From NCBI GenBank assembly GCA_016432485.1, contig CP066691.1, forward strand, positions 388,709 to 452,708: DNA of 64,000 nt, written 5' to 3'. The position numbers and the translations under genes are program-made. The notes below the pieces were generated by a model, which searched no databases, was not told the DNA's origin, and saw nothing but the letters and a program-made list of their open reading frames with translations. Source of the stretch: Candidatus Niyogibacteria bacterium (GTDB lineage: Bacteria > Patescibacteriota > Minisyncoccia > HO2-45-28). Positions 8,241-51,719 of the stretch are shown here, one piece after another (position 1 is the stretch's first letter; each line of letters opens with the position of its first letter).

Positions 8241-8297
8241 TCCGATTCCTTGTAAGCATATGGTTTCAGGTACTATTTCACCGCCCTCAACGGGCTG

Positions 8298-8337
<40 letters not shown>

Positions 8338-9090
8338 TTGAAACGTATTTAGCCTTGGGAGTTAGTTCTCCCGGATTCCCCCGACCCATTCATGCGTCGA
8401 GGTACTCAAGTAATCCTTCGACTTCGCTCAGGATATAACACCCTGAGTTTAATCGAAGGGTAACGATTCAGAGAGCATAAGACCGTTTTTGAATACGGGG
8501 CTATTACCCACTATGGCCCGGCTTTCCAGCCGATTTTCCTAACGAAGTCTTAATTTTATTAACTCTCCTTGGGATTGCTCCCAAACGAACCGTACTTACA
8601 ACCCCTAACTAGTTGACTAGTAAACTAGTTCACTAGTTAAGTTTGGGCTGTTCCCTTTTCGCTCGCCGCTACTAGGGGAATTTGCACATCTCGCTTGCGC
8701 TCGATGTAATGACTAATTCCTAATTTCTAATTCCTAAAATAATTAGAAATTAGACATTAGATAATTAGAAATTGCATATCGAACGTAAGTGAGATATGTG
8801 TTGTTTTCTTTTCCTCCAGGTACTGAAATGTTTTACTTCCCTGGGTGCACTCTCCGATTAAAATCGGAGTAATTTGGTTTTGCCAAATTGGGTTTCCCCA
8901 TTCGGACATCCCCGGTTCAAAGGTTGCTCGCCACCTCCCCGAGGCTTATCGCAGGCACGCCACGTCCTTCATCGTCGTTTCAAACCAAGGCATCCACCAT
9001 ACGCCCTTATGTTCTGTCCCGGTGTTTTGATATTTATCCCGCCATTCTTTGTACCACTTACAAAGAAAACGGGATTTTTAGACTTATTTT

Positions 9091-9232
9091 CCCTCACACC
9101 TACTTTGGCATCGTTATGTCATGTTTTCGTTATTCTTGTCACGTATCCGCGACAGCCAACGAAACATTCATTCCGCCGACTGATACTTGTGATGCAACAA
9201 AAACACAATGCCAAAGTAGGTGTGAGGGTGAC
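9091..9232. repeat. ~145-bp structured palindromic element in the rRNA leader (copy 2)
   Basis: Same element as 8096..8240. Lies between the rRNA promoter and the 23S 5' end. Confidence 0.7.
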
Positions 9233-9378
9233 CCTTTCATAAATTGTCAAAGTTCTTGCGCACAAACGTAAAACCGCCTCTTGAAGGCGGGTTCTGCAAA
9301 TACGGCAAAATTTGACGCTACATTCCCCCTCCGCCTTCTTTTTGTGGATATATTAACTGGTTTAACATTTGTATTTCC

Positions 9379-9471: not shown

Positions 9472-10158
9472 CTAGTTGTTGGAAATATCCGAGCGAAGAC
9501 GCTCTATAAACCTTGCGGCGGCTTCCTTTCCTCCGAGACCGAAAGCCAAACCAACAGCCAAGGCCAAAGCGGCGATAAATCCGGTAAAGAATGTCTGAAC
9601 AAAAACTCCGGCGATGCCCAATTGATAGAGCGCCGCTAGAATGGCAAAAATCCAGATAGCCCACTTTGCAACTCCGCCCAAAAATCCAGCGGAAGGCAGA
9701 TGAGCCGCTTTTGCCGAACCGGCGACAAATTTTCTGACCACATCCGCGATAACGGCCGCCACAACCAAAATAATCGCGGCAACTATCACATTCGGCAAAT
9801 AGACCAAAACAATTTGAGCCAAGAATACATTAACTTCTCTCAAACCCAGAACATCAACGGCGGCAACCAAGAATACCAGTATGAAAAACCACTTCACGAG
9901 CACGCCAACGAATTTTCCGGAATCAAGCCTGAACCCAGCTCTGGAAAGCGGGTCTTCAACTCCCAGGCCCTGAAGAGCGCGATCAATTTTCAACGCTCGG
10001 AAAATCTGGATAACGACGCCTTCAAGAGCGGCGGCTATCACCCAGCCTATGATGAAAATGACAAGCGCTATAACTAATTGCGGCACAAAAGCCACAACTC
10101 CCACCCATAATTGCTGGAATGACGACAAAAGAACATCACCCCAAGTCTGTAACAACAT
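9472..10158 (-). CDS. multi-TM membrane protein, MscS-like conserved TM-helix repeat family
   Basis: 228 aa with several hydrophobic helices and repeated WxxGxxAxxxxL patterns typical of mechanosensitive-channel N-terminal TM repeats. Confidence 0.45.
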   Translation of the reverse strand: MLLQTWGDVLLSSFQQLWVGVVAFVPQLVIALVIFIIGWVIAAALEGVVIQIFRALKIDRALQGLGVEDPLSRAGFRLDSGKFVGVLVKWFFILVFLVAAVDVLGLREVNVFLAQIVLVYLPNVIVAAIILVVAAVIADVVRKFVAGSAKAAHLPSAGFLGGVAKWAIWIFAILAALYQLGIAGVFVQTFFTGFIAALALAVGLAFGLGGKEAAARFIERLRSDISNN

Positions 10159-21629: not shown

Positions 21630-22382
21630 TTAATTCCCCTCCAAGTCCAAGTCCGAACTCGGTTCGGATTCCGAACCGAGTTCGGACTTGGGCCGGTTTA
21701 TCCATTCACTTATAAATTTCCAATAATCCTCAACGCTGTTATCAAAATACTCCATCACCATACTTTTATCAATAAGTGACGCAAATTTTGTTCCTTGTTC
21801 AAGGTAATCAGGCAGACTAGACCACTTGTACTCCTTTAAAAACTTTTCCGCCCCCACTTTATCCTCAACATATCCCCTCTCTTTCCACATCGGGTCAAAT
21901 AATTCTAAAGGATTCAGATGAATATATCGGCTTACATGCGTAAAATGTTTGTCTCCGCCTATATGCACCGCCTTAAATTTGCCGCTAAAGAGCGGCCCCG
22001 AGCGTTTATATTTAGTATTAAAGTACAAAGCGTGGCTTACCTGAAGACGGTGCAGAAAAGCGCTTATGCCTCCTTCTTTCAGTTCTTTCACCAAGAGATG
22101 AAAATGATTTGGCATAAAACACCAGCTTAATATCTCAACCATTGGTTCCTTGTCGGAATCCGTCAGAGTCGGAACCGAGTTCTGCATTTGACGCGCTGGC
22201 TTGCCGGAGGCATCGTTCAAATAGAATAAAATAGTTGCAAATCTACGTCTATCAAAGTCATCTTCAAATATAGTGCGCTTTTCCACGCCTCTGGTAAAAA
22301 TGTGGTATATTTCCCCCTCTACAAAATCAATATCACGCATTGCCCTAAACTCTAACACACTGTCAGAACTCGGTTCTGACAA
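21630..22382 (-). CDS. REP-associated tyrosine transposase (IS200/IS605-like Y1 HuH transposase, RAYT)
   Basis: HuH motif CFMPNHFHLLV and catalytic-Tyr region HVSRYIHLNP. Flanked on both sides by REP palindromes. Confidence 0.7.
   Translation of the reverse strand: MSEPSSDSVLEFRAMRDIDFVEGEIYHIFTRGVEKRTIFEDDFDRRRFATILFYLNDASGKPARQMQNSVPTLTDSDKEPMVEILSWCFMPNHFHLLVKELKEGGISAFLHRLQVSHALYFNTKYKRSGPLFSGKFKAVHIGGDKHFTHVSRYIHLNPLELFDPMWKERGYVEDKVGAEKFLKEYKWSSLPDYLEQGTKFASLIDKSMVMEYFDNSVEDYWKFISEWINRPKSELGSESEPSSDLDLEGN
21641..21694. repeat. REP palindrome (GAACCGAGTTC family), locus 1
   Basis: CCAAGTCCGAACTCGGTTCGGATTCCGAACCGAGTTCGGACTTGG, a near-perfect ~50-bp palindrome. Confidence 0.75.
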
Positions 22383-22409
22383 AACTGTGGATAAGTTGTG
22401 AATATGTCC

Positions 22410-22445
22410 ATCCGAACCGAGTTCGGACTGAACTCGGTTCGGATC
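22410..22445. repeat. REP palindrome, locus 2
   Basis: TCCGAACCGAGTTCGGACTGAACTCGGTTCGGATCG, immediately upstream of the RAYT start. Confidence 0.75.
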
Positions 22446-22452
22446 GAATAAA

Positions 22453-23112
22453 CTATTGGAGCGAATCTAGAAACAATTGGATGTCGCCGGTGGGGTCGGC
22501 GCCGGCGGAAATGCCTTGTTCTAAAACTTCCCTAGCCCTACTTATATCCCCCATTACTTCCCTATAAAATCCGGCCATTTGATAATAAACAAAGCCGTTC
22601 TTGGGCTCGGCTTGAATAGCTTTTGAGAAACTTTCCTCCGCCTTCTGATTATTATGAATGTAATAAGCGTAGAGATCGGCCGAATTTAAAAAAGATGTGG
22701 CTATGTTGGGACGAATAATGCCCGCAAAACTCCACGCTTCAATCGCTCCTTCATAGTCGCCCGCGGACTTTCTCAAAATACCCAATTGAAGCCAACCCTG
22801 CAGATAGTTATAATTACCCTTCAGCATTAAAGAAACCTCCTGTATGTCTAAAATCAGTTGTTGGCGTCTTTCCTTCGAAATACCAACCACAACCTTAATA
22901 GGCCTCTCTAAATCAGGGATATTCTTGTCAATTACGGCAGATTCCGAACCGAGTTCGGCAGCTGCAGAACTCGGTTCGGACTCGGGTTCTGGTTCGAATA
23001 GCGGCGGAGGCAAGGGTAACGGAACTTTCTGGTCGCGCCAGATGAAATATCCGGCCACTGCGACAATAACAAGTAAAAATAAAGGCAAAAGCGGTTTAAA
23101 TTTTAAGTTCAT
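22453..23112 (-). CDS. TPR-repeat protein with N-terminal TM anchor
   Basis: 219 aa. TPR-like helices in the C-terminal half. Linker EPEPESEPSSAAAELGSESAV is encoded by a REP palindrome. Confidence 0.5.
   Translation of the reverse strand: MNLKFKPLLPLFLLVIVAVAGYFIWRDQKVPLPLPPPLFEPEPESEPSSAAAELGSESAVIDKNIPDLERPIKVVVGISKERRQQLILDIQEVSLMLKGNYNYLQGWLQLGILRKSAGDYEGAIEAWSFAGIIRPNIATSFLNSADLYAYYIHNNQKAEESFSKAIQAEPKNGFVYYQMAGFYREVMGDISRAREVLEQGISAGADPTGDIQLFLDSLQ
22942..22998. repeat. REP palindrome, locus 3 (inside coding sequence)
   Basis: TTCCGAACCGAGTTCGGCAGCTGCAGAACTCGGTTCGGACTCGGGTTCTGGTTCGAA. Confidence 0.7.
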
Positions 23113-23160
23113 AAGGAATATTTTAGCATTTGGAAAATTTTGTGCAACCCCCCCTCCTCA

Positions 23161-23203
23161 AAATCCGAACTCGGTTCGGCACGAACCGAGTTCGGAATCG
23201 GAA
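23161..23203. repeat. REP palindrome, locus 4
   Basis: AATCCGAACTCGGTTCGGCACGAACCGAGTTCGGAATCGG. Confidence 0.7.
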
Positions 23204-39317: not shown

Positions 39318-39766
39318 TGTGTGAAAAGCGGAAGAATATCTATGGCGCCTGCCGTGATAACACGTGAATTCCGATACGCCTCTGCCGCCTTAACCATAAT
39401 AGGATCGCCGACATGCGCGTCTGAAAAAACCGCGGGGCTCGCAATCAATTTCTGCCCCCCTCGCCCGTCGGATTCGCCGCTGAATTCAAGTTTCGCGAAT
39501 TGCGTGCCCGCCGTAATCTGAATGGTCGCGTCCCGACGGATAATCACCTCTTTCTTCAAGAGCAGGTCGCTGTCAAATCCGGAAACAAAATAAAGTTTGC
39601 CTCCGGCATCAATGGATGTAACAATCGCCTGAAAATGGAACGGCGTATCCGAGTCAATGACCGCCGATGTTTCTCCGGCTTGCCTGGACCCGGCCTGCCA
39701 GAAATAGACAACAGCGACAACCAAAACGATAAAAATGATTAAAATTACAGCGTTTTTTGAGGGCAT
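39314..39766 (-). CDS. hypothetical membrane-anchored protein
   Basis: 150 aa with N-terminal TM. Overlaps the upstream stop by 4 nt (operon-like). Confidence 0.35.
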   Translation of the reverse strand: MPSKNAVILIIFIVLVVAVVYFWQAGSRQAGETSAVIDSDTPFHFQAIVTSIDAGGKLYFVSGFDSDLLLKKEVIIRRDATIQITAGTQFAKLEFSGESDGRGGQKLIASPAVFSDAHVGDPIMVKAAEAYRNSRVITAGAIDILPLFTQ

Positions 39767-39953
39767 AAAATATAAAAATTAAGCTGTTATATTAATATGA
39801 TAGCAAATTGCGCCTCTGTAGATATTCTGCGCTGTGGATAAACGCCGACTACCCTTTGCAAAAGTTCACTATACTAACAATGTTCAAAAATAACTAAAAA
39901 AGAAGGCCACCCCGTTGCCGAGGTGGCGTCTTAAATTTTCTGATGTTATTAGA

Positions 39954-40319
39954 TCAAGGGTGTTCTTGCGCTACCTCGATTTTTTCTGCTTCCAAAAGGG
40001 CATTCAGGATTCTTGATAATATGCTTAGTGCTTCAGAGGAATCCATCCCCTCTTTCCAATCAGTACCCCCTTGGTTCGCCATTCCGGAACCGTTTCGCTC
40101 TTCATCAATAAGCTTAACGCCACCGGCAAGCGAATTACCGACCCAGAAAGGATCTGTGTAATAAATGGAGTAATCGACACATTGCACTGCCTCGTTCTCG
40201 GAATCACTCACACATATAGTAATTCCTTTTAATTTATCCCCGTGCGCTTCTTTGATTGGCGCCAAATCAAAACTAACGAAATACCTGCCGCCTTTAATTA
40301 TTCGGACTATTTTTGACAT
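39954..40319 (-). CDS. hypothetical protein
   Basis: 121-aa ORF with no recognised motif. Confidence 0.3.
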   Translation of the reverse strand: MSKIVRIIKGGRYFVSFDLAPIKEAHGDKLKGITICVSDSENEAVQCVDYSIYYTDPFWVGNSLAGGVKLIDEERNGSGMANQGGTDWKEGMDSSEALSILSRILNALLEAEKIEVAQEHP

Positions 40320-40479
40320 TCGAGTCCTCCTTTTTCAAAAAACTTTTGGCTAACAAAACGCCTATTCTCTAACAGAGAGGTTAGCACGCAATATAAATTC
40401 TGTCAAGGTTTTCGTTATGGTTCAGTGGCAAAGAAGATTTTTATTATTATTCAGCAACAAAAAGTTCCATTTCCCTGTA

Positions 40480-40569
40480 CCCGCCTTCGCATCCTCCTTC
40501 GTCAGAGACTTCGGATGGACGCAGTAAAGCTACGGAGGGCAAAGAAAAAGTCTCATAAAGTGCACTTTA
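40480..40569. repeat. ~85-bp direct repeat, copy 1
   Basis: CCCGCCTTCGCATCCTCCTTCGTCAGAGACTTCGGATGGACGCAGTAAAGCTACGGAGGGCAAAGAAAAAGTCTCATAAAGTGCACTTT. About 90% identical to 41882..41965. Confidence 0.7.
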
Positions 40570-40700
40570 GGAGAACAGGCTTGCCCCGTACCAAGCTTTG
40601 CTCTGGTACTGGGGTCAAAACCTTTTTGAAGTTGGTTGTTGAATAAAAAAAGCGCTGGAATTCGCGTCCAGCGCAGTATCTTTACACTTAGTGAAAATTA

Positions 40701-41126
40701 CTAGCGGCACTTTGATCTGTCGAACTTTATTTCTACCTCCTCTGTGAAATCATACACCGAAACAGAATGCGTAATAATCATATTTTCGTGTTGTTCAACC
40801 TTGTTTTCGGCCGTGTTTGGCCTTTCAATCACGAATATGCCTTTCCCGACAAGCATGGAACAACCGATAACAAACACAGAACCAAAAGTCCCTGTTGGCC
40901 TTATGTCTGGATGAGGGTTGGCAAGCCACACATTTACATCACCTTGATTCGGATTGTAAACCCAGGTGTTAGTGTAAACATGCACTGTCGCTTTCCCTAT
41001 ATTGTCGTTGATTTCAAACGACGCACGATAGCGATACCCCAACGACTTGTCACTGTTGCCATAGGCAGTAACCGATACCAGTAAAAAACACGCAATAAGC
41101 AATGAACAGGCGGCGTTTTTGAGCAT
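40701..41126 (-). CDS. small secreted hypothetical protein
   Basis: 141 aa with signal peptide MLKNAACSLLIACFLLVSVTAYG. Confidence 0.4.
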   Translation of the reverse strand: MLKNAACSLLIACFLLVSVTAYGNSDKSLGYRYRASFEINDNIGKATVHVYTNTWVYNPNQGDVNVWLANPHPDIRPTGTFGSVFVIGCSMLVGKGIFVIERPNTAENKVEQHENMIITHSVSVYDFTEEVEIKFDRSKCR

Positions 41127-41406
41127 CTTCTTCTCCTATGGGAGGACCTTTCTTACAAAAAACTTTGAAATGCGGCGCCTCTTTCTAAAGTACCACCGAC
41201 ACATAAAAAAACAACCCACCGGAGTTTTCTTGTTAGAACCTCTGTTTTGGCGGATTTGAATTCTGTGGACTGCCGTCTAATTCGCTTCAGAAATATTGTT
41301 AGACGCTGATAGAGAGTAGCGAGTCGTTATCTTGACTATAAATTCTAAATGATTATTATTAACAGTAGAATAAGCAATATTTAAATAGCACAGGATACGA
41401 GGAGGA

Positions 41407-41778
41407 ATGTGCATGAGAAAGGTTGTGAAGAAAACGACACTTTGGCGATGTTCAGTATGTGGCGCTGAATACAGAAAGAAATCCGATGCTCAAAAATGTG
41501 AGGGTATGCCAGTTGAAGAGCAGAAGTTTAGGGTCAGTGATCAAGTAACCAACTCAATGGAGCCGCGTGTATGCTCGTCAGGTGGCGAATACCGATTCAA
41601 TGGGAGAATCAGTAAAGTTTTTGGACCGCAGCCGCCAGATGAAGAATATTGGAATAAGTGGCTGGGCGGATTGCCCAAAACGCATGTTTTCTATTACGAA
41701 GTCACTTACAAATGTCCCAAGTGTGGGCAAAAGAAAGATGCTACGTACTTTGGGCCAGAACTAGAAAAAGTAAAATAA
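41407..41778 (+). CDS. small Zn-ribbon protein
   Basis: CSVCGAEY...CEGM at the N-terminus and CPKCGQKKD at the C-terminus. Confidence 0.4.
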   Translation: MCMRKVVKKTTLWRCSVCGAEYRKKSDAQKCEGMPVEEQKFRVSDQVTNSMEPRVCSSGGEYRFNGRISKVFGPQPPDEEYWNKWLGGLPKTHVFYYEVTYKCPKCGQKKDATYFGPELEKVK

Positions 41779-41881
41779 ATATTTAAAAGTGCTATTGCTC
41801 ACACCTTGTGGGCTTTTTTGTTAGAACCTCCAAGGTTTCTGAAATAGAAATGGCGATTGATGTGTGATGGCGCCTCTCCTA

Positions 41882-41965
41882 CGCATCCTCCTTCGTCAGA
41901 GACTTCGGACGGACACAGTAAAGCTACGGTAGGGCAAAGAAAAAGTCTTAAAAAGTGCACTTTTA
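41882..41965. repeat. ~85-bp direct repeat, copy 2
   Basis: See 40480..40569. Confidence 0.7.
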
Positions 41966-42208
41966 TAGACGACCCGCCTTCGCCAAGGCTACGGCGGGCA
42001 AGTGTTACTGCGTCCTTCGAAGCTTTAGCGAAGAAGGAGAACCTCTCTCAAGGCGCTACCTGATCTTTTGGATAACGGTTTACTGCGCCCTAGAAACGCT
42101 CTAAAACGCTGATAGAAAGCGAAATTTTCATCAGCCTATTGTTTTTTTGCTTATAGGAAGTATATTGAAACATAGACAGTTCAAACCCCTCGACAGGAGA
42201 CACTGGGT

Positions 42209-42553
42209 ATGAAAAATCTTCTTGGTAGTGCTGTTATTCTCATTGTTGGATTAGCAATCGGGCTTATACTGCCCAAATATCTTGGAGGAGAAAAAAATAC
42301 AATATTGATATATGCTCTGCAAAACAAGAAAGATCCTTCAAAAGTAGTGGTGTCTATACAGATCTTGGAAAATAGTGAGGCGTGGCTAGCCTACAGATTT
42401 TCGCTGGAGAACAAAGGCAAAGATGCGATTCTGGCAGGATTCTCTGACGAAGAATGGAGCAGCCTTGCTTTAGAAAGCCAGAGGCCCAAACATTTCAACG
42501 CCAGCGCAGATTTTGAAAACAGCTTCCGCCTCCGTTACGTTGAACCTGAATAA
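42209..42553 (+). CDS. small membrane-anchored hypothetical protein
   Basis: 114 aa, N-terminal TM. SD-like GGAG upstream. Confidence 0.4.
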   Translation: MKNLLGSAVILIVGLAIGLILPKYLGGEKNTILIYALQNKKDPSKVVVSIQILENSEAWLAYRFSLENKGKDAILAGFSDEEWSSLALESQRPKHFNASADFENSFRLRYVEPE

Positions 42554-42776
42554 TATTTTGCGAGCTGAACACTATAGATGAGGTCCAACAGGGACCTCTT
42601 TTGTTAGAACCTCTATTGAACTATCACAATATCCTTTCTTTTTCAGAAGAAATTATCGTCGGCGTAAAAAGCGATTCTCTTTCCCTATACAGGGAATGTA
42701 ACGATGTTAGAACCTCCAAGATTTTTGAAATTTAAATAACTTTAGCGCGGCTAAAACGTCAAAAGTCCAATAGTGT

Positions 42777-42846
42777 GCGGGTAGGGGGAATCGAACCCCC
42801 TTCTCAACCTTGGGAAGGTCGCATCATGCCATTAGACCATACCCGC
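42777..42846 (-). tRNA. tRNA-Gly (anticodon CCC), irregular acceptor stem
   Basis: GCGGGUA-UG-GUCU-AAUGGCA-UGAU-G-CGACC-UUCCCAA-GGUUG-AGAA-GGGGG-UUCGAUU-CCCCC-UACCGC-A. Acceptor needs a bulged G or has a 1-nt indel. Confidence 0.55.
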
Positions 42847-42850
42847 GAAA

Positions 42851-43387
42851 TTATTTTTTAACCAGCACGCCATCTGTCCACTCATACGGCAAAGAATAAA
42901 TTTTGACATCGGCCTTGACCAGCGCGCCGTTTAACCACTCGTTAAAATCTCCGCCCTCTTCTCGCAGAACTTCCGACAAAATGTCCTGGCGCGCCTGCGG
43001 CAAAAGAGCAAACTCTTTGAACTCATCAACACTCCAACCATAAAGACTCCGGGAGGCATTTTCAAGGCTGTCGGCAGCTTTTTGCCAGGCCGCCTCAACT
43101 CTTTTTTTAGCTTCTTTACGGTCAATTCCTCGCGTTTCAAGCTCGGATTCAATCAATTCATTCATAATCAGCGATATAATTATGCCTCGTTTCGCCGTTT
43201 CTTCATCAATCGGTTCCAGGGTCGCTCTCCGATAATATTCAAGGCCCGAAAGCCGGTCGTAATATTTTCCGGCCCAAACGGAACTGCCGTTTACATTAAT
43301 CAGCGGGTAAACGCGAAGATTCGCTGTAAAAAAAGATAAAAGCGCCAGCGCGACCAAGGCCGCCAAAATATAAAAAACGTATTTCAT
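42851..43387 (-). CDS. hypothetical membrane-anchored protein
   Basis: 178 aa, N-terminal TM. Confidence 0.4.
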   Translation of the reverse strand: MKYVFYILAALVALALLSFFTANLRVYPLINVNGSSVWAGKYYDRLSGLEYYRRATLEPIDEETAKRGIIISLIMNELIESELETRGIDRKEAKKRVEAAWQKAADSLENASRSLYGWSVDEFKEFALLPQARQDILSEVLREEGGDFNEWLNGALVKADVKIYSLPYEWTDGVLVKK

Positions 43388-43809
43388 CGATTAAAATTGA
43401 AAAGACCGGTAAAAAAGCCGCCGATTTCAGACAAAAAAGACGAAAATTTTCCGGGTTCGTTGTCCGCGCCCTTTTGCCGGCGGTCAATTATAGTCATCAA
43501 TTCCTCGCCGGGTTTTGCTAAACCGAATTGCCGGCGCAATTCCTTTTCAAGACCGTAAGAACTGGATAAATAATCCAGTCTTTTTTCCAAATCGGCCGAT
43601 TTAATCGCGATATCCGCGCGCTCTTCCCTGACCCCAATATAAGCCGTCCGGGCGTCTCTTGCCCCGATATACGCTTTTATCGCGGCCTGCCCCAAAAAAA
43701 TAAGCATCAAAAACATAACGGCCAAAACCGGACGGGAATAAATCAATTTTTGGTTCGGATTTCGCCTTTTAAAACCGGCCATTAAATTTATTATATCATT
43801 TTTTGGCAT
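43384..43809 (-). CDS. septum formation initiator-like (FtsB/DivIC/FtsL-type) protein
   Basis: 141 aa with single TM then coiled-coil. Position next to cell-envelope genes. Low-complexity evidence only. Confidence 0.4.
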   Translation of the reverse strand: MPKNDIINLMAGFKRRNPNQKLIYSRPVLAVMFLMLIFLGQAAIKAYIGARDARTAYIGVREERADIAIKSADLEKRLDYLSSSYGLEKELRRQFGLAKPGEELMTIIDRRQKGADNEPGKFSSFLSEIGGFFTGLFNFNR

Positions 43810-43956
43810 TGCCGAATTGACGGCCGGGGTTTATGATAACGGCATGTTTCTAAGCCCTAAAAATAAGAAAAGATACGGCGCCATCTGGACTGCCATCAGC
43901 GTTTTAGCCATTATCGCGATGATAATTTTTCTTATCATCCCGCTGATAAGCGTTTT

Positions 43957-45741
43957 CTAGTTCCGTCGTATCATTTTTATAAAAACCTCATGGGGAATCT
44001 GAACGCGCCCGAATTCTTTGAGGCGTTTTTTTCCCTTTTTTTGCTTGGACCAAAGCTTCATCTTGCGTGTTCTGTCGCCGCCGTAAAGATATCCGGTAAC
44101 ATCTTTTTTAAGCGCGGGCAAAGTTCTTGAAGCTATAATCCTGCCTAGAGATTGTGCCTGAAGTTTCATCGCAAAAAGCTCTCTGGGTAAAATTGAATAA
44201 AGTTTTTCAACCGCGTCTTTGGATTCGCGCTCAATACGAGACCTGGAAACCACCCGGCTGAAAGCCGGAACTATACTGCCATGCACCAAAATATCAAGGC
44301 GCGCCACATCAGCTTCACGTAAATCGCCGGGCTTGTAGGAAAAAGAGGCGTAACCGGACGTGGAACTTTTTAATTCATCAAAAAAATCGCGCATCAGCTC
44401 GCGGAGGGGCATTTCGGCTTGAATCAAAATACGGTTTTCGCCGAAAATATCAGTGCTTAAAACGGATCCCTCGCGGCTTTGAATAAGCTTAAGACTGGGG
44501 CTTAAATATTCTGAAGGAACTATAAGCCGACAATCGGCCCACCTTTCTTTAACCGATAAAATATCGTGGTCGTTCGGGAATTCGGATGGCGCGAAAATAA
44601 ATTTTGTTTCGCCATTTTTCATACTTATTTCGTAGGCCACGGTGGGAGACGCGGCAACGACTTTCATTCCGAATTCGCGCTCCAATCTTTCAAGAACTAT
44701 CTCCAAATGCAGCATGCCCAAAAAACCCAAACGCATCCCGCGGCCCAAAACACTTGAAGATTCTTCTTCGTACGAAAAAGAGGTGTCGCTTAAATGCAGG
44801 CGTAAAATTGCTTTTTTAAAATCGCTGAAATCATCTTCTTTCAACGGATAAACGCTTGTCCAAACTACCGACTGGGGTTCGTGATAGCCGCCCAGGGCCG
44901 GAGCCGGATTCAAGACAGACGTAAGCGTATCTCCCACTCTAACCTCGGACGGATTTTTTATATTGGTCGCGATGTATCCTATTTCTCCGGCTTGCAATTC
45001 GGCGGCCTGAGATCGGTTTGGCTTAAATACGCCTATTTCTTGTATCGTGAACTTAATTCCTGACCGCACCAACTTTACCTCGTCGCCTTTTTTGAAAATG
45101 CCGTCAAAAACTCGGATGTAGGCGATGACTCCTTGATGAGCCGAGTAATCAAAATCAAATATCAAAGCGCGGCGCGGCGATTCAACGTTCCCTGAAGGCG
45201 CAGGAACGCGCTCAACGACTTCTTTTAAAAGTTCCTCAACGCCTTCGCCCGTTTTTCCGGATACTTTAAGAATTTCTTCAGTCCCGACGTTTAAAATCTT
45301 TTGTATTTCTTCTTCAGTTTTTTCTACCCTTGCGCCCGCTAGGTCAATCTTGTTGACCACAGGAACTATTTTCAGCTTCAATTCGCGAGCCATATCCAAA
45401 ACAGAAATCGTCTGGGCTTCAACTCCTTGAGTGCCGTCAACCAAAAGAATCGCCCCTTCCACCGCGGCCAGAGCCCGTGAAACTTCGTAAGCAAAATCAA
45501 CGTGTCCTGGCGTGTCTATTAAATTCAGTTGGTAGTTGATAGTTGATAGTTGATAGTTCATCCGGACCGGCTGCATTTTTATGGTTATGCCTCGTTCGCG
45601 CTCCAATTCCATTGAATCCAAAAATTGCTCGCGCATTTTTCTTTTTTCTATTGTGCCGGTCAATTCCAAAAACCGGTCAGCCAGCGTTGACTTGCCATGG
45701 TCAATGTGAGCGATGATGACGAAATTTCGGATATTTTGCAT
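43957..45741 (-). CDS. lepA: elongation factor 4 (LepA)
   Basis: NFVIIAHIDHGKSTLADR, DTPGHVDF, NKIDL plus the LepA-specific C-terminal domain. Confidence 0.9.
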   Translation of the reverse strand: MQNIRNFVIIAHIDHGKSTLADRFLELTGTIEKRKMREQFLDSMELERERGITIKMQPVRMNYQLSTINYQLNLIDTPGHVDFAYEVSRALAAVEGAILLVDGTQGVEAQTISVLDMARELKLKIVPVVNKIDLAGARVEKTEEEIQKILNVGTEEILKVSGKTGEGVEELLKEVVERVPAPSGNVESPRRALIFDFDYSAHQGVIAYIRVFDGIFKKGDEVKLVRSGIKFTIQEIGVFKPNRSQAAELQAGEIGYIATNIKNPSEVRVGDTLTSVLNPAPALGGYHEPQSVVWTSVYPLKEDDFSDFKKAILRLHLSDTSFSYEEESSSVLGRGMRLGFLGMLHLEIVLERLEREFGMKVVAASPTVAYEISMKNGETKFIFAPSEFPNDHDILSVKERWADCRLIVPSEYLSPSLKLIQSREGSVLSTDIFGENRILIQAEMPLRELMRDFFDELKSSTSGYASFSYKPGDLREADVARLDILVHGSIVPAFSRVVSRSRIERESKDAVEKLYSILPRELFAMKLQAQSLGRIIASRTLPALKKDVTGYLYGGDRTRKMKLWSKQKKGKKRLKEFGRVQIPHEVFIKMIRRN

Positions 45742-45752
45742 ACCCAGTACAA

Positions 45753-45959
45753 TTACACCGATTTATAATTTCGCAATCTCATGCCAAACCACCTTCGACC
45801 CCTTGTGGTTTTTAAATATCTTTCTCTTTGTTGAGCGTCCTCTTTGTTTAAACATGCTTCATAATATATTAACTTCAATGGCCTGTAATTATCGCCATCT
45901 TTATCGCTATGCGGAACATAAGTGTAGAAGAACACAATCGGTGTAATTGTACTGGGCAT
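45753..45959 (-). pseudogene. degraded GIY-YIG nuclease-family gene remnant
   Basis: FFYTYVPHSDKDGD (cf. YVYIL.SEKDGS) jumps directly to YRPLKLIYYEA...RERYLKTTRGRRWFG (cf. RPLKLVYYEEF...REYQLKKWSR). The YIGyT..RR..H core is deleted. Confidence 0.45.
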
Positions 45960-46032
45960 AAATAAATATTCTAACTTATTTCAAGATAAATAAAAATACG
46001 GCGACCCCACGGCCGTCGCATATTTTTATCGT

Positions 46033-46671
46033 TTAGTTGCCGATAAGAACCTTTCCTGAAACGGCGTTCTGGTATGTATAAAAAACCTCGCGAAGCGCCG
46101 ATTCATAACCAGCTTTTACTTGAAACCCTACGACGAGAAAAAATTTTCCCGATTCAAAATCCCGAATCAATTCTTCTTTGTTTGTGAAGTGGGAGAAAAA
46201 CTCTTTGTATATATCAAGTTCCTGGACAAGAGTTTTTTTGGGTATTTTTTTATCTCTTGGATGTCCCCAGATTGTCTCAAGGCACTGCCTTGGTTCCCAG
46301 AGGGCGAAGCCCGTTCCTTTGTCCACCGACATTCCTTTGGATTCATAAAAGAACTTTTCGGCAGGCGTAAGGCTTGTCATCTCAAGTCGTCCTGAAAAGG
46401 GAGTTCTGCGGTAGGTTTGAAATCCCGGACATTGCGGAAAATCTGGAAAACCGGCAATCTCAATTTTCAAGAAGGGTCTACCCTCCTTGATAAACACGGT
46501 TACTTTATCGCCATCCCAATAGTGATAAAGGCCGATGATGCTCGCACCCACGTTACTGGCAACGCTCAACTCAACAAACAAAAGGGCCGCTGCAAACAGC
46601 AGAAGCATTTTTTTCATTCGCTTCACCTCCTTCTTAAGCGGAGAAGGCGCCTTCCTTGGACGCGGCTCCAC
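46033..46671 (-). CDS. secreted hypothetical protein
   Basis: Signal peptide MKKMLLLFAAALLFVELSVASNVGAS. Confidence 0.4.
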   Translation of the reverse strand: MEPRPRKAPSPLKKEVKRMKKMLLLFAAALLFVELSVASNVGASIIGLYHYWDGDKVTVFIKEGRPFLKIEIAGFPDFPQCPGFQTYRRTPFSGRLEMTSLTPAEKFFYESKGMSVDKGTGFALWEPRQCLETIWGHPRDKKIPKKTLVQELDIYKEFFSHFTNKEELIRDFESGKFFLVVGFQVKAGYESALREVFYTYQNAVSGKVLIGN

Positions 46672-46796
46672 ATAGAGCCGGCCCGCAGAAGCGAGCTGAA
46701 AAGAACTACGACCGTATTATAATCGCCCGCACCAAAATGTCAAACCAAACCTCGCCCAAACACGGAACACCAAATATAAAACAGAGCGTATAATCT

Positions 46797-46830
46797 AATA
46801 CAGGCGATCGCTTTTATTAGATTATTGGTG
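46797..46830. repeat. GCGATCGC-centred palindrome upstream of PaaX-like copy B
   Basis: AATACAGGCGATCGCTTTTATTAGATTATT. Repeated at 47380..47412. Confidence 0.7.
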
Positions 46831-46854
46831 TAAAATCATATATAATTAAACATT

Positions 46855-47382
46855 ATGCGGCTACCTATTACGGACGAATTTTTGTGGAAATTGTATGATT
46901 TTACTGAAGAGCTTGATAAAACATATGACTTTTTCGCCCCGCGCACACCATACGAAATAGTCTATCCTGAAATACATCGCTTAAAACGCGAGTATCAAAG
47001 ATCAAGCGCGCGAACAGGTTTCAGTCAATTTGTACAAAATCTGCAAAACAGAGGATATATTCAAGTAAAGGCGCTCAAAGGAACAAGGGGCGTTATTCTC
47101 ACGCCGAAAGGCGCCGAAAGAGCATTGAGAATAAAGTTAAAATTCGTAAAAAAGAAAAAGCGAAAAGATAATAAATGGATTATGATTATTTTCGATATAC
47201 CAGAAAAACAAAGACGCGCAAGAGAATTGTTCAGAAACGCGCTGATAAATCTTGGGTATCAAAAACTACAAAAAAGCGTTTGGGTGTGCCCTTACGACGT
47301 GCACAAAGAAACAGAAGAAGCGATACGGGCATACCGCTCCATTCCTTACGTCAAACTTTTTATTATAGAAGAGATAATCTAA
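46855..47382 (+). CDS. short PaaX-like protein: winged HTH plus Cas2-like-fold middle domain (copy B)
   Basis: 175 aa. FVQNLQNRGYIQVKALKGTRGVILTPKG (cf. PaaX FVRTALFRLNKEGWLDVSRIGRRSFYSLSDKG). KDNKWIMIIFDIPEKQRRARELFRNALINLGYQKLQKSVWVCP (cf. PaaX WDGKWLLLLSEGL...LIWQGFGALAPSLMASP). Confidence 0.6.
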   Translation: MRLPITDEFLWKLYDFTEELDKTYDFFAPRTPYEIVYPEIHRLKREYQRSSARTGFSQFVQNLQNRGYIQVKALKGTRGVILTPKGAERALRIKLKFVKKKKRKDNKWIMIIFDIPEKQRRARELFRNALINLGYQKLQKSVWVCPYDVHKETEEAIRAYRSIPYVKLFIIEEII

Positions 47383-47412
47383 TACGGGCGATCGCTTTTA
47401 TTAGATTATTAA
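47380..47412. repeat. GCGATCGC-centred palindrome downstream of PaaX-like copy B
   Basis: TAATACGGGCGATCGCTTTTATTAGATTATT. Direct repeat of 46797..46830. Confidence 0.7.
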
Positions 47413-47430
47413 TATTTTCGGCCCAATCCC

Positions 47431-49116
47431 CTATCCCTCAATCGCGCTTCGGGGTTCTGGCGCGACGGCTTCGCTTTTCCAAAATTTATGGCCAAGAGCT
47501 TCGGTTATGTCGCGGATTTCGCGATTCCCTGAAAACCAAAGAAATGCTCCGGCCGAAATAAGACCGGAGAGCGCCGCTGATATCCCGTGGAAAAAAACGC
47601 CCAAAAAAGTTTGGAGATCAAAAAATCCGCCGGTTATTCGCAAAACGCTGTAAGAAACCGCTCCTAAAATCAGAGCCGAAACCGCGTTTTGCAAAGACGA
47701 ACGTAAAAGCGTTCCGTCAAGGGTCTTGAAAAAGCGGTTAAAACCAAACCACAGCAAAACGGCATTAATAACACTGCCTATGCTGAATGAAAGTACAAGC
47801 AAAAGGACCGAGGTCTGATTTAGGTCCTCAACGCGCAAAATATGTTTACCCAAAAAAAGCAGAGCCGTATTTGATTTGAAAAGATATAAAGTGCCCGCGG
47901 CCATGGCAACGGTTACCAAACCCGAAATAGCGTTCACGATAAGAGGAAAAGCGGTGCGTCCGGCAGCGTAAAACGCCCGCACCAAAAGCAAAACTATGCC
48001 CTGCGCCAATATGGATACGCTGAATAATCCCAAAGCGGCCGCGGTCAGCCGCGTGTCAGACCAGCTGAAAACTCCGGCGCCCAGAATTACGCGGACAATG
48101 TGCGCGCGTAAAACTATAAACAAAACCACAAACGGAAGCGACCAAAAAATAATATGGCGCAGGGAAGAAACAACGCCCGAAACAAATTCTTCTTTTTTGC
48201 CGTCAACAAAAAAACGGGCCATGGTCGGAAAAGTGGCGACACTATAAGACAGCCCCACAACGCTCAAGGGAATGCTGAATAAATTATAGGCCAGCTGAAA
48301 AACAGCAATGGAACCCGCGCCTATGGCCGACGCCATGGCCGTAAAAACAATCAAAACCAACTGATTAAAACCGAGTCCGGCCGAACGCGGCATGGAAAGT
48401 TTAAGAACATCCAAAGCATCTCGGCTGAAAATTTTAAAAGTCAGGCCCGGAAAAAGTCCAAGCGAAACCAAACTCGGCACCTGTATTAAAAAATGGAGCA
48501 AGGCGCCCAGCACAACGCCCCAAGCTAGTCCCGAAAGACCCATTGCCGGATAAAAAAACAAAATGCCGGCTATGATACCGACATTATAGAGAATAGGACT
48601 TAAGGCGTAAATAAAAAAACGGCTATGCGCTTGAAGGACATTAGAAACAAGAGTTGAGAAACCCAAGAGCAAAGGAGATAAAAGAAGTACGCGGCTTAAA
48701 TTGATAAGTTGGTCAAAACTCGCCACAGAAAATCCCGGGGCGATAAAAGCTGAAATGTAGGGCATTAAAAAAAACGAGACCGAAATCAGCAGGGCCGCAA
48801 CCAGAAAAAAAAGACCGGATACCCGCGAAATAAATTTTTTAACCTCGCCCGATCCGCGGCTTTCTTTCTGCACAAAAATCGGGAGAATCGCGGCACTAGT
48901 TGAAAATATGAGCAGAACTGAATATAAAAAATCAGGAACGCGAAAAGCGGCAAAATAAATATCAAGAGTTGCTCCGGCGCCGAAAGAGCCGGCGAGCAAT
49001 CTGTCACGATAAAGCGCCAAAAATTTGGCGGCCACGCTTGATAAACCAATAAGCAAAGCGGCCTGATAAACGCCGGCCACCTCTCGGTTCAAAGACGATA
49101 AAAATTTTCTGACCAT
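47431..49116 (-). CDS. murJ: lipid II flippase MurJ/MviN
   Basis: 561 aa with 14-TM MviN pattern (LLAGSFGAGATLDIYFAAFRVPDFLYSVLL...). Confidence 0.8.
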   Translation of the reverse strand: MVRKFLSSLNREVAGVYQAALLIGLSSVAAKFLALYRDRLLAGSFGAGATLDIYFAAFRVPDFLYSVLLIFSTSAAILPIFVQKESRGSGEVKKFISRVSGLFFLVAALLISVSFFLMPYISAFIAPGFSVASFDQLINLSRVLLLSPLLLGFSTLVSNVLQAHSRFFIYALSPILYNVGIIAGILFFYPAMGLSGLAWGVVLGALLHFLIQVPSLVSLGLFPGLTFKIFSRDALDVLKLSMPRSAGLGFNQLVLIVFTAMASAIGAGSIAVFQLAYNLFSIPLSVVGLSYSVATFPTMARFFVDGKKEEFVSGVVSSLRHIIFWSLPFVVLFIVLRAHIVRVILGAGVFSWSDTRLTAAALGLFSVSILAQGIVLLLVRAFYAAGRTAFPLIVNAISGLVTVAMAAGTLYLFKSNTALLFLGKHILRVEDLNQTSVLLLVLSFSIGSVINAVLLWFGFNRFFKTLDGTLLRSSLQNAVSALILGAVSYSVLRITGGFFDLQTFLGVFFHGISAALSGLISAGAFLWFSGNREIRDITEALGHKFWKSEAVAPEPRSAIEG

Positions 49117-49124
49117 TGAACGGC

Positions 49125-51446
49125 CTATTCCCTGACTGGCGGCTCTTGGCGGGCTTCGGGCCTAGGCGCCGGCGGGGATATTCCGGACAAGGCGCTTTTT
49201 CCATTGCGCAAATTTCTTAATATCTGATCCACTTCTGCGTTTTGAGGATTTAAACTTTTTATCAATTCAAATTGTTCAATGGCCGCGGGCTTCATTCCCA
49301 GACGGTCGTAAATCAAGCCCAAAAAATATCTGGCGTTTGAGTAGTTTGAATTCAGAGCAACCGCTCTTTCAAAAACAACGCGAGCGTTATCCAGGCGGTT
49401 TGAACGATAGTAAAGCAAACCGAGCTGAAACAGCGCTCCAATATCGTTCGGGCTCAAAACGGCCGCCGCTTCAGCGCGCAGAATAGCGTTAGAAGTATTG
49501 CCCTGCGCGTCTTCTATTTGAGCTAAAAGAAAATGCGCGGGAGTATAGTTGCTTTTAAGTTTCAAAGAATCTTCAAGCAAGCCCTTGGCCTGATCAAGCT
49601 GATTCAAGGCCAGTGCCACCCTGGCCTGAACCAATAAAGGTTCGGGACTTGTGGAATTTCTTGCCGCGGCTTCTTTGTAAGCGCTCATGGCAAATTCCGA
49701 AGCCCCAGCAACCTGAAAAGGAATCACCGCTTCATAAACGCGCCCCATAGCCATCCAATTAAGATTTTCCGCTGGATTAAGATTGACCGCGGTTTGCGCG
49801 TTTTGTATGGCCCGGCTTAAAAAACTCTGAAATCCGCCTCTTATATCGTCAGCGGAAAGGTCGCCTCTATTGAGCAATAAAGCCATGTCCTGCAAATCTA
49901 ATTCGGCCGCCGCTCTAAAATAAGAATCGCGCTGGTCCAAAGAAATCGCCAAACCCAGAGCTCCGCGCGCTCCAGCCGCATCACCAACCGCGCTTAATTG
50001 ACCGGCTCTCCCAAAAAAGTAAGCCGAGGCGTATTTTTGTCCGAAAATGTAAAAACTGGAAAAAGAAACTATTAAAAGAAATATGATGGCCAGAGCCGAT
50101 ATGAATCCGATTCCTGAACTTTGGAAAAGAGCGATGTTATACTCTTTAGCCAGGCGGCGCTCGGAAATAAGCGCCATAAACATGCCCAAAAACAAAAACA
50201 GAAAAAGGGTTAAGGTGAATCCGACGTTGTAAACGAACAAATAAACAAAAATCATCAGGGAACCGCAAAGAACCAAAACAAAAATAGGGTCAAGTTTTGT
50301 CTGCCCGGAGCCGGCAAGGGCCTTTAAACTAAAATAAAAAAACGAAAGTGCGACTAACAAAAAAGCGGCAAAGCCCAAAATGCCGACCGAGGCCAAAAGA
50401 GACGGCACAAACGCGACTCCGCTTGAAAAACGGGTCGCCCAAAAAATACTTTCATTGACGGCAAGCGGTTTGAAGCGCAGCCAATCGTATACGAAAGTCG
50501 CCGGACCCGAACCAAGGAAAGGAGTTTCTTCAAGCGTCTTTTGCACAACCGTCCAGGAAGCCGGGAAAGACGGCCTAACTTCAAGATCGCCCAATCCTAA
50601 ATAAGAAATAATTGACGAAGAAATTGCCGGAACCTGGATAAATAAAAGCACTACGATTAAAGCCAAAAGCGTTGCGCTAAAAATATTTATTCTACGCGGC
50701 TTCAAAGATAAAAGGTAGGCCATTATTACCAGCAAAAAAGAAAAAGTTACCCACCAAATAATACGATTGTTGACCATCACGATAACGACGAGCGAAATTA
50801 AAGACAGCCCCATAAAAACGGCGCGAAGCCTGCGTTCGGTCAAAACCTCAAAAAGAAAAAGCGCAAGCACTCCCACCACGCTGAAAAATATCCCGAGTTC
50901 GGTCCAGGAACCAAAGAGATTTGAAGATGCTGATGAAAAATTAATTCCCAAAAAAGAACTGAAACCAAAAACAACCCGCAAAAGCTGAAAGATAAAAATA
51001 AGAAGAGCGGATGAAAACAGGGCCGAGAACCAAAAAAATACTTCTTTCGGAGTGCGCAGATAAAAATAAGCGACAAATCCGGCAATCACAAACATCAAAA
51101 CGGCAAAGAAACTTGAGGCGTCGTCATTTAATTCGTAGAAAGAAACATGCGGGCTTAATGAAAAAACACCGGACATAAACCAAACCGCCGCCATAAAAAT
51201 AAGCGTCAAAGCCAAATAATTTTTTGGCAGCGTAACCGTTCCGGTATTAATCCGACCGACAAGCCAGCATAGAAAAGCGACAATTATCAAAAGATAAGAT
51301 AAGGCCACTTTGTTCGTGCCCAGGGGATTTGAAGTAAGAGGCAAAACCCAAAACGGAACAAGAAAGCCGAGCAAGTAAACCGACCAGCGCCCCGCTCTGT
51401 CCCATAAAGAAAAAGAGAGTGGTTTTTCAGCTAAATTTTCAGCCAT
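49125..51446 (-). CDS. O-antigen ligase/polymerase-like multi-TM protein with C-terminal TPR repeats
   Basis: About 12 TM segments then TPR-like helices (AEAAAVLSPNDIGALFQLGLLYYRSNRLDNARVVFERAVALNSNYSNARYFLGLIY). Confidence 0.55.
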   Translation of the reverse strand: MAENLAEKPLSFSLWDRAGRWSVYLLGFLVPFWVLPLTSNPLGTNKVALSYLLIIVAFLCWLVGRINTGTVTLPKNYLALTLIFMAAVWFMSGVFSLSPHVSFYELNDDASSFFAVLMFVIAGFVAYFYLRTPKEVFFWFSALFSSALLIFIFQLLRVVFGFSSFLGINFSSASSNLFGSWTELGIFFSVVGVLALFLFEVLTERRLRAVFMGLSLISLVVIVMVNNRIIWWVTFSFLLVIMAYLLSLKPRRINIFSATLLALIVVLLFIQVPAISSSIISYLGLGDLEVRPSFPASWTVVQKTLEETPFLGSGPATFVYDWLRFKPLAVNESIFWATRFSSGVAFVPSLLASVGILGFAAFLLVALSFFYFSLKALAGSGQTKLDPIFVLVLCGSLMIFVYLFVYNVGFTLTLFLFLFLGMFMALISERRLAKEYNIALFQSSGIGFISALAIIFLLIVSFSSFYIFGQKYASAYFFGRAGQLSAVGDAAGARGALGLAISLDQRDSYFRAAAELDLQDMALLLNRGDLSADDIRGGFQSFLSRAIQNAQTAVNLNPAENLNWMAMGRVYEAVIPFQVAGASEFAMSAYKEAAARNSTSPEPLLVQARVALALNQLDQAKGLLEDSLKLKSNYTPAHFLLAQIEDAQGNTSNAILRAEAAAVLSPNDIGALFQLGLLYYRSNRLDNARVVFERAVALNSNYSNARYFLGLIYDRLGMKPAAIEQFELIKSLNPQNAEVDQILRNLRNGKSALSGISPPAPRPEARQEPPVRE

Positions 51447-51518
51447 ATTCAAAATAGTATCATAAGCCAATTTGACTGGCAAAACAACCTTATGCACAAT
51501 AAAGTAATGGGACGATAT

Positions 51519-51719
51519 ATGACAATCAAAGAGGCAGCTAAATATCTGGGAGTCTCCCCGCTGACCTTGCGCAATTGGGATAAAAAGGGGCAACTGGTGG
51601 CCATAAGGCACCCGGTCAACAATTATCGCCTGTATACTTTTTCGGACATAGAAAAATTTCTAAAAAGCTTTGAGGGCAGAAGGCCCAGAAAATTGAAAGT
51701 CCGACTCATAGAGGATTAA
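51519..51719 (+). CDS. small HTH_17 (excisionase/MerR-type) DNA-binding protein
   Basis: MTIKEAAKYLGVSPLTLRNWDKKGQL helix-turn-helix. Confidence 0.5.
   Translation: MTIKEAAKYLGVSPLTLRNWDKKGQLVAIRHPVNNYRLYTFSDIEKFLKSFEGRRPRKLKVRLIED

Follow-up and report, generated by a model that had tools for sequence, protein, structure and literature searches.

The attC sites of integrons are imperfect palindromes of 50-150 nt with inverted cores (RYYYAAC ... GTTRRRY), and clusters of attC sites which lack an integrase are referred to as CALIN. A complete integron has a tyrosine recombinase of the IntI type, with attI, beside its array, and its cassettes, all oriented alike, mostly lack promoters; shufflons have inverted recombination sites and a linked recombinase of the Rci/Hin type. 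In the pdif modules of Acinetobacter plasmids, Xer recombinases are exploited through 28-bp sites with two inverted 11-bp arms; phage morons are independent promoter-gene-terminator units. Single-strand transposition of the IS200/IS605 type inserts directly 3' of a fixed target of 4-5 nt, without target duplication, and involves subterminal hairpins. Repetitive extragenic palindromic (REP) sequences and REPINs (REP doublets forming hairpins), with their Y1 transposases (RAYTs, REP-associated tyrosine transposases), have been defined in PMC3337134, and REPINs have been described as mostly vertically inherited. The present analysis concerns an array of small genes abutting a tRNA-Gly gene, in a 64,000-nt stretch of a Candidatus Niyogibacteria genome (Candidate Phyla Radiation), called here the window, in which a short motif, S, and two GC-rich hairpins, H and X, are repeated; copy counts of S, H and X refer to these 64 kb. 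The array is read here as a hotspot of gene flux downstream of tRNA-Gly, where S would be a protein-recognised site of recombination or insertion and the hairpins would be miniature insertions similar to REP sequences or REPINs; this explanation is put forward tentatively, as a possibility somewhat short of even chances.

The window is a stretch of core genes, nearly all of them on the minus strand. The array zone extends from tRNA-Thr (37105-37180) to tRNA-Gly(CCC) and contains small hypothetical genes without family assignment. At 40400-42760 the initial annotation, made from the sequence alone, had described three short genes next to tRNA-Gly and three classes of repeats; genes and tRNA are present as described, and on re-alignment all three classes were recovered, far above chance. 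For comparison, loci L010, L011 and L025, all containing S, and further relatives (L018-L022, L026 and L027) were used, along with two contigs of the IMG/VR collection (L023 and L024); the comparative base for S is made up of four genomes, i.e. the window, L010, L011 and L025. The array is composed of self-contained units (upstream module, promoter-like site, gene, terminator-like hairpin), separated by copies or fragments of a noncoding linker conserved in the lineage, module M. Genes, signals and modules are listed below, U denoting the module found upstream of two of the genes.

39954-40319, minus strand: 121-aa hypothetical gene, left neighbour (open reading frame, ORF; identical product in same-strain contigs)
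40652-40674, both strands: terminator-like hairpin, found on either strand, closing the 141-aa gene
40701-41126, minus strand: 141-aa gene with an N-terminal signal-peptide-like segment (ORF; narrow family)
41230-41242, plus strand: S copy W1 (TTGTTAGAACCTC), marking where gene order left of the Zn-ribbon gene stops matching L010 and L011
41245-41331, plus strand: module U of the Zn-ribbon gene, including ACGCTGATAGAGAG at 41303-41316
41332-41359, plus strand: promoter-like site of the Zn-ribbon gene (TTGACT, 16 nt, TATTAT; promoter scan)
41413-41778, plus strand: Zn-ribbon gene, 121 aa, two CxxC pairs and an SH3-like barrel; conserved anchor of the locus
41797-41813, plus strand: intrinsic-terminator-like hairpin of the Zn-ribbon gene, its T-run leading directly into S
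41818-41851, plus strand: S copy W2 and start of the tail (TTGTTAGAACCTCCAAGGTTTCTGAAATAGAAAT), i.e. module M without spacer; 85-88% identical to L010 10524-10563
42048-42139, plus strand: second copy of module U, before the 114-aa gene, including ACGCTGATAGAAAG at 42106-42119
42139-42166, plus strand: promoter-like site of the 114-aa gene (TTGTTT, 16 nt, TATATT; read by eye, not flagged by the promoter scan)
42209-42553, plus strand: 114-aa gene with an N-terminal membrane-spanning-like segment, occupying a variable slot (ORF)
42580-42598, plus strand: intrinsic-terminator-like hairpin of the 114-aa gene, its T-run leading into S
42597-42740, plus strand: full module M, with S-a at 42601-42613, a spacer of about 90 nt, S-b at 42704-42716 and the tail
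42775-42846, minus strand: tRNA-Gly (CCC), its 3' end facing the array

The NCBI records HYY55_02295 and HYY55_02300 match the Zn-ribbon and 114-aa proteins with 100% identity. The window is also matched here with 100% identity by short-read contigs obtained independently from the same strain, one of which occurs in 12 samples; these contigs end at the repeats, as de Bruijn assemblies do. Because of the identity of these contigs, the array sequence is not an assembly artefact.

The 9-mer S (GTTAGAACC) has four intact copies within 1.5 kb (41230-42716) and none elsewhere in the window. Of the four occurrences initially reported for the longer form TTGTTAGAACCTC, at 41230, 41818, 42601 and 42705, the first three are exact, while the last carries one mismatch (ATGTTAGAACCTC) and starts at 42704; 0.08 matches would be expected. 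The extension claimed for two of the copies was found over 33 nt (41819-41851 and 42705-42737, 88% identical). All copies share one orientation, i.e. they are direct repeats. S is confined to this locus also in 20 kb of L010 and in 15 kb of L011. In the DNA read, S is not a genome-wide word of the uptake type.

The array resembles an integron or a CALIN in being a row of small gene units with a recurring short core starting with GTT, a variable content and a single orientation of the sites. An integron-like cassette array, a cluster of attC sites deprived of its integrase or a shufflon would explain both the direct repeats at unit boundaries and the differences in gene content between species, and GTTAGAA is similar to the attC/attI core GTTRRRY. 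This word has, however, an A at the consensus Y, and the inverted core GGTTCTAAC occurs nowhere in the region, hence there is no attC-type palindrome; the linker contains two direct S copies instead of an imperfect palindrome. Module M lacks a stable conserved fold, its consensus being weak on both strands (-9.7 and -8.7 kcal/mol over about 200 nt). Pfam scans of all ORFs within 32478-51611, i.e. 8 kb to either side of the array, detected neither an integrase of the IntI type nor any other tyrosine recombinase. The units have promoter-like and terminator-like signals of their own, the array is only 2-4 units long, and in L011 the corresponding gene lies on the opposite strand. Inversion of the shufflon type is impossible between sites which are all direct repeats, and no invertase was found nearby. 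The likeness to integrons and shufflons put forward in the initial annotation is therefore extremely improbable. What holds of its cassette-like description is the modularity, together with the presence in relatives of different genes between the same boundary motif; cassettes of the integron or shufflon type are not what the array contains.

Similarly, the array shares with pdif modules the arrangement of discrete genes between short recombination sites, the enzyme being encoded elsewhere, but S is asymmetric and has no conserved inverted partner. A dif/Xer site was rejected in view of this missing inverted arm, and of a gene strand bias which does not switch here. Morons are comparable in their own promoter-like and terminator-like signals and in their insertion between conserved neighbours; the array, in contrast, is chromosomal, lies in a core-gene neighbourhood without phage genes, and has a recurring boundary motif, which is not a moron feature. 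A phage origin was likewise rejected: blastn gave no match in 50,697 phage records, and S followed by the tail is absent from IMG/VR. The word TTTTGTTAGAACCTC has 98 single matches in IMG/VR; the multi-copy loci inspected are AT-rich contigs with flanks unrelated to the window modules, and these matches were taken as chance.

Module M, of about 150 nt, was found in three genomes and consists of a terminator T-run, S-a, a spacer of 90-110 nt, S-b and a tail (AAGATTTCTGAAATAGAAA). In the alignment of window 42597-42740, L010 10396-10560 and L011 5847-5990 (174 ungapped columns), 83 columns (48%) are invariant, and the sole invariant 11-nt runs are the two copies of S, an asymmetric word (TGTTAGAACC) which forms the invariant core of the module; two such runs have P = 5e-5 (20,000 permutations). 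S is therefore much more constrained than the sequence around it. Conservation of the modules falls to only about 55-70% outside S, and S is unchanged across genomes whose orthologous protein is 68-78% identical.

These data bear on the notion that the repeats serve no function today: segments of the Zn-ribbon intergenic region would have been duplicated locally, and the decaying copies later hit by hairpins similar to REP sequences or to miniature inverted-repeat transposable elements. Such relics would be in line with the low conservation of the modules outside S, with the lack of strain-level variation and of an adjacent enzyme gene, and with the divergence of S at the orthologous position behind the Zn-ribbon terminator in L022 and in L026, where a variant (TAGAACTTCC) is found. 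Uniform decay, on the other hand, is not expected to leave two invariant 11-nt runs among columns of which 48% are invariant; an identical S is present in the fourth genome, L025, at a different locus; and the hairpin insertions described below cluster within 10 nt of one another inside S. Given the constraint on S, a purely neutral relic is unlikely.

Comparison of gene order indicates where content changes. To the right, the order tRNA-Gly, DivIC-like gene, LepA, MurJ and TPR protein is common to the window and L011; to the left of the Zn-ribbon gene, gene order is unrelated between the two, and S copy W1 sits at the break. The slot between the Zn-ribbon gene and tRNA-Gly is occupied by the 114-aa membrane-type gene on the plus strand in the window, by a 138-aa lipoprotein-like gene on the minus strand in L011, by a GIY-YIG gene on the minus strand in L010, and by yet another gene in L018. 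Pseudogene remnants of the relatives' slot genes were not found in the window, except for a GIY-YIG homologue 3 kb away. The latter was detected by tblastn at 45768-45938 on the minus strand, just upstream of lepA (35% identity, E = 2e-9), with the small GIY-YIG protein which adjoins the Zn-ribbon locus in L010 and L011 as a query; the position of its gene differs in each genome.

The flanks of S are also reassorted. Three kinds of left flank (a terminator T-run, a sequence ending in ACGAT, and others) are combined with three kinds of right flank (the spacer, the tail CCAAGRTTTYTGAAAT, or CTCTCAAGGCG), in at least five combinations. The Zn-ribbon terminator leads into S also in L010, L011 and L026; it is followed by S and spacer in L010 and by S and tail in the window. 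The latter arrangement, copy W2, is what a deletion from S-a to S-b would be expected to leave. L025 has an identical S at another locus, where it precedes the relative of the 114-aa gene, as well as an S-like copy upstream of a further small gene. In the same contig the terminators of two small genes are each followed by a second common motif, TTTTCTTTTACYTMATCC (within 6185-6235 and 9280-9330), which is different from S; repeated words behind terminators may be general to these small-gene units.

As in tRNA-linked islands with att repeats, the variable content lies on the 3' side of a tRNA. In L019 (240-470), directly downstream of the Zn-ribbon gene, the 20-nt 3' end of tRNA-Gly(CCC) (TGTGCGAGTACGGGGAATCG) is duplicated around a GC-rich insert of about 190 nt. 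This looks like the remnant of an integration event, and marks the tRNA-Gly 3' side as an insertion site in the clade. The window differs from such islands in that neither an integrase near the tRNA nor a copy of the tRNA 3' end is present: its 24-nt 3' end has no second copy at up to three mismatches. S itself is not significantly similar to the tRNA, and the idea that it is an att site left over from the 3' end of tRNA-Gly was rejected: the S flanks match three tRNA-Gly genes no better than shuffled sequences do, except for a duplicated tRNA-flank segment in L011.

The two plus-strand genes share the upstream module U. Its copies, about 90 nt following S, are paralogous (41245-41331 and 42048-42139, z = 5.1), and both contain the word ACGCTGATAGARAG, 67 nt after GAACC; the two occurrences had been placed at 41295 and 42108, the true positions being 41303 and 42106, and 0.01 would be expected by chance. 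The module of the Zn-ribbon gene is related to the upstream region of the L010 Zn-ribbon gene (z = 2.9). The module before the 114-aa gene resembles this same L010 region (z = 4.3), and not the upstream region of its own orthologue in L025. Of the duplicated promoters or regulatory RNA leaders initially suggested, what stands is this paralogous upstream module of two genes; the repeated elements are explained neither by an RNA family nor by a conserved fold.

The main rival of the gene-flux hotspot takes S for a cis-regulatory site bound by a protein (an operator, an activator site or a roadblock) and shared by a small regulon of genes for secreted or membrane proteins; the modules would be duplicated upstream regions, and the mosaics would stem from ordinary duplication together with homologous recombination. 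Promoter-like hexamers follow S at a distance of 56-110 nt before the Zn-ribbon gene (in the window, and in L010 behind a split copy), the 114/115-aa gene (window and L025) and a 160-aa gene of L025; the modules behind S are paralogous, with ACGCTGATAGARAG at the same distance in both; one helical turn upstream of S-b there is a half-copy (TAGAAC/TAGAC/GTAAC), an arrangement typical of direct-repeat binding sites; and a binding site would be constrained across species, as S is. Nevertheless, a downstream gene on the same strand is missing for two of the five window copies and for two of the three L010 copies, which face tRNA-Gly in antisense or the opposite-strand GIY-YIG gene. The copy before the L010 Zn-ribbon gene and the window 114-aa gene has been kept in spite of the 61 nt of hairpin DNA that divide it, and the distance to promoter-like sites is variable. 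No regulator gene is linked to the array in the window; genes for extracytoplasmic-function (ECF) sigma factors are near in L010 and L025, but S has no consistent -10 partner at the proper distance, and its reading as an ECF-sigma or sigma-70 promoter was rejected on this ground. On balance a regulatory S seems doubtful, though worth keeping in mind.

The insertions which split S belong to a set of GC-rich hairpins. The elements concerned are as follows.

40428-40478, plus strand: partial copy of the M spacer (GAAGATTTTTATTATTATTCAGCAACAAAAAGTTCCATTTCCCTGTA), cut off by a GC-rich element; aligns with window 42645-42700, L010 9709-9764 and 10467-10522, and L011 5892-5947
40480-40579, plus strand: copy A of the 85-bp repeat, in which H-left (40480-40490), a plus-oriented X (40491-40524) and H-right (40525-40544) are followed by a 44-nt tail with GTGCACTTTAGGAGAACAGG at its end
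40580-40616, plus strand: further GC-rich hairpin (CCCCGTACCA...TGGTACTGGGG), single copy (fold -19.3 kcal/mol; no second copy found)
41868-42056, plus strand: long imperfect hairpin of about 190 nt, X in plus orientation within copy B pairing with the inverted X behind H (minimum free energy -74.9 kcal/mol for 41860-42075, z = -2.98)
41878-41963, plus strand: copy B of the 85-bp repeat
41966-42043, plus strand: fifth copy of S, interrupted (TAGACGA, H at 41973-42002, TGTTA, inverted X at 42008-42038, GAACC)
41973-42002, plus strand: hairpin H, 30 nt, GC-rich (CCCGCCTTCGCCAAGGCTACGGCGGGCAAG; fold -14.2 kcal/mol)

The repeat of about 85 bp, given initially as 40480-40569 and 41882-41965 with about 90% identity, was found at 40488-40568 and 41882-41963, with 94% identity and one indel. 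It is composite: two halves of H enclose X (34 nt within the repeat, fold -9.6 kcal/mol), and the 44-nt tail follows. The end of this tail in copy A is common to L011 5236-5254 (19/19 nt). Behind the intact H, X recurs in the opposite orientation, so that the 85-bp element is the left arm of the long hairpin, a feature which the initial annotation had not included, as it had not the interrupted fifth S and the partial spacer. In L010 the partial spacer copy 9709-9764 is likewise cut off by a GC-rich element.

When H and X are removed from the fifth S copy, the sequence TAGACGATGTTAGAACCTC is restored, equal to the empty sites of the window (42697-42716) and of L010 (10516-10535); the uninterrupted S-b near the tRNA (...AACGATGTTAGAACC...) is the same sequence. 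The same two insertions, at the same positions, are present in L010 (9767-9832). The block formed by the fifth S with H, TGTTA and X is 97% identical between the window and L010, as compared with about 80% for the Zn-ribbon coding sequence beside it; the outer flanks can hardly be aligned. In L011, an unrelated GC-rich hairpin of 53 nt breaks the S behind the Zn-ribbon terminator, starting directly after TTTTTTGTTA(G). Both X (window, L010) and the L011 hairpin are compatible with entry at TGTTA^G without duplication, being two events, each ambiguous by one base; the entry word of H is different.

REP sequences are typically dispersed over the genome in many copies, and the same palindrome flanks the RAYT gene. 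H and X have 2-3 copies in the window, all at this locus. As an exact 29-mer H was found also in two unrelated GC-rich viral contigs of IMG/VR, in intergenic position (L023 778-806 and L024 4607-4635); very distant genomes therefore have this small hairpin in common, which fits a mobile or promiscuous mini-element. H and X are similar to REP sequences in being extragenic GC-rich palindromes of about 30 nt, and the inverted X pair forms a long hairpin, as in REPINs; within the 64 kb read they are seen at one locus and only 2-3 times, and they differ in the occurrence of H, unchanged, in unrelated viral contigs, as opposed to the mostly vertical inheritance described for REPINs.

The fold of the composite element could also be taken for that of a structured regulatory RNA (leader, riboswitch or small RNA), encoded by the 85-bp element and its neighbours. 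The region 41860-42075 indeed folds better than its shuffles, and the block around H and X is nearly identical in two species. Copy A, however, in its own context and without an inverted partner, folds no better than shuffled sequences (z = -1.07), and copies A and B have six differences, none of them of the compensatory kind. The copies face opposite ways relative to neighbour genes, and the Zn-ribbon gene has the element on its upstream side in L010 and on its downstream side in the window. An Rfam search, at the gathering threshold and up to E = 10, returned tRNA only, without any known riboswitch or leader family. Such an RNA is thus very unlikely. The 85-bp element was rejected as a coding sequence too, the ORFs over copies A and B being in different frames; a search of 5.8 billion proteins found no relative of its translated ORF of 68 aa.

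A Y1/HUH transposase gene (IS200-like, Pfam Y1_Tnp) is located at 21630-22382 on the minus strand, 19 kb off the array. The 15-nt palindrome CCGAACYSRGTTCGG forms back-to-back doublets on either side of this gene and of the next one, a TPR gene (21647-21691, 22407-22447, 22940-22983 and 23164-23196), and the whole (21630-23200) has the appearance of a RAYT/REPIN-like arrangement in a Candidate Phyla Radiation genome. L010 encodes a homologue of this transposase, so enzymes able to move hairpins exist in these genomes; the link of Y1 to the array is only a lead.

According to the gene-flux reading, S (TGTTA^GAACC) would be a DNA site recognised by a protein acting in trans, at which strands are cut and rejoined. 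Exchange between S copies may have deleted the spacer in copy W2, duplicated the upstream module U, and placed different genes into the same slot in different species. Miniature GC-rich hairpin elements would also be inserted at S, H and X in one copy and an unrelated hairpin in an S copy of L011; the insertions inside S are precisely delimited. The 85-bp repeat is a composite of such hairpins, X within H plus a tail, which together with the inverted X yields a REPIN-like long hairpin.

Several observations weigh against this explanation. No recombinase or transposase was detected by Pfam within 8 kb of the array, and the palindromes which flank the Y1 gene differ from H and X. The initial annotation had proposed a search for variation in cassette order: none was found in the strain-level contigs examined, which come from many samples and are all identical and collinear, so that no ongoing rearrangement is seen. 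The more distant relatives L018-L022 and L027 lack S, and just four genomes carry it, a thin base. Several copies (W1, the split copy and both L025 copies) are placed 56-110 nt upstream of promoter-like sites, as a regulatory site would be. The insertion in L011 is ambiguous by one base, and the site restored there has diverged. Finally, homologous recombination between duplicated intergenic modules could give the same mosaics without a site-specific enzyme. The array is probably a variation on a known theme, that of a tRNA-adjacent variable region with miniature palindromic insertions, the unusual part being a conserved asymmetric core motif at unit boundaries. The motifs are not mentioned in the literature searched, which also yielded nothing relevant on integrons or REPINs of this lineage.

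A bolder proposal is that S is the cleavage and crossover site of an undescribed cassette-exchange system of the Candidate Phyla Radiation. An enzyme acting in trans, which could be a housekeeping tyrosine recombinase or a Y1/HUH single-strand transposase such as that at 21630-22382, would carry small-gene units with their promoters, as well as miniature hairpins, into a conserved linker beside tRNA genes and out of it again, as a functional analogue of integrons built from different parts. We regard it as improbable. Candidate Phyla Radiation bacteria have tiny genomes, and the gain and loss of their small secreted and membrane proteins, thought to mediate a host-attached lifestyle, are poorly understood. 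If S marks gene swaps and hairpin entry, it would provide an asymmetric handle of 9-11 nt with which exchange sites could be found, the mobile gene pool catalogued and the enzyme sought; if it is regulatory, it would be among the first cis-regulatory motifs defined in this lineage. Both readings can be tested with existing metagenomes.

As for the genes of the array, the start of the Zn-ribbon gene is more likely at 41413 than at 41407, as initially annotated: AGGAGG lies 7 nt upstream of the former, and public records call the same start. Its product has ten homologues, with 64-78% identity, and the gene adjoins tRNA-Gly in five loci; genome and metagenome scans returned just five further Zn-ribbon loci. 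Family searches (Pfam, PHROGs, NCBIfam, PADLOC) gave weak zinc-ribbon matches and nothing beyond, and the AlphaFold model (mean predicted local distance difference test score, pLDDT, 85.7) has only weak SH3/L19-like matches in a fold search. In L020 (176-2748) the gene is followed not by the tRNA but by a gene for a 709-aa TraG/VirD4-like coupling protein (DUF87, TrwB_AAD_bind), which hints that it sometimes travels with mobile-element genes. The 141-aa protein has just six relatives among 1.84 billion representative proteins, and neither it nor the 121-aa product of 39954-40319 has a family match in Pfam, PHROG, NCBIfam or PADLOC. The sole relative found for the 114-aa protein (68% identity) is the one in L025 mentioned above.

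Further repeats were noted around the array and elsewhere in the window. The tRNA-Gly 5' end with its upstream flank (42839-42874) matches a site in the MurJ gene (48819-48854) over 36 nt at 75%, probably by chance. A 45-nt inverted repeat (35086-35130 and 37054-37098, 98% identical) has one arm immediately beside tRNA-Thr. The match to 23S rRNA, on the minus strand in the region 5900-9228, spans 3121 nt as compared with a model of 2925 nt; a 138-nt direct repeat (8102-8239 and 9091-9228, 91% identical) straddles the 23S 5' end, and short tandem ACTAGTNA repeats occur inside the gene at about 6666 and 8600, which suggests insertions in, or a duplication at, the rRNA gene. A PaaX-middle/Cas2-like ORF (46855-47382), on the plus strand, which carries few of the genes in the window, is bracketed by a 37-nt direct repeat (46790-46826 and 47374-47410, 97% identical).

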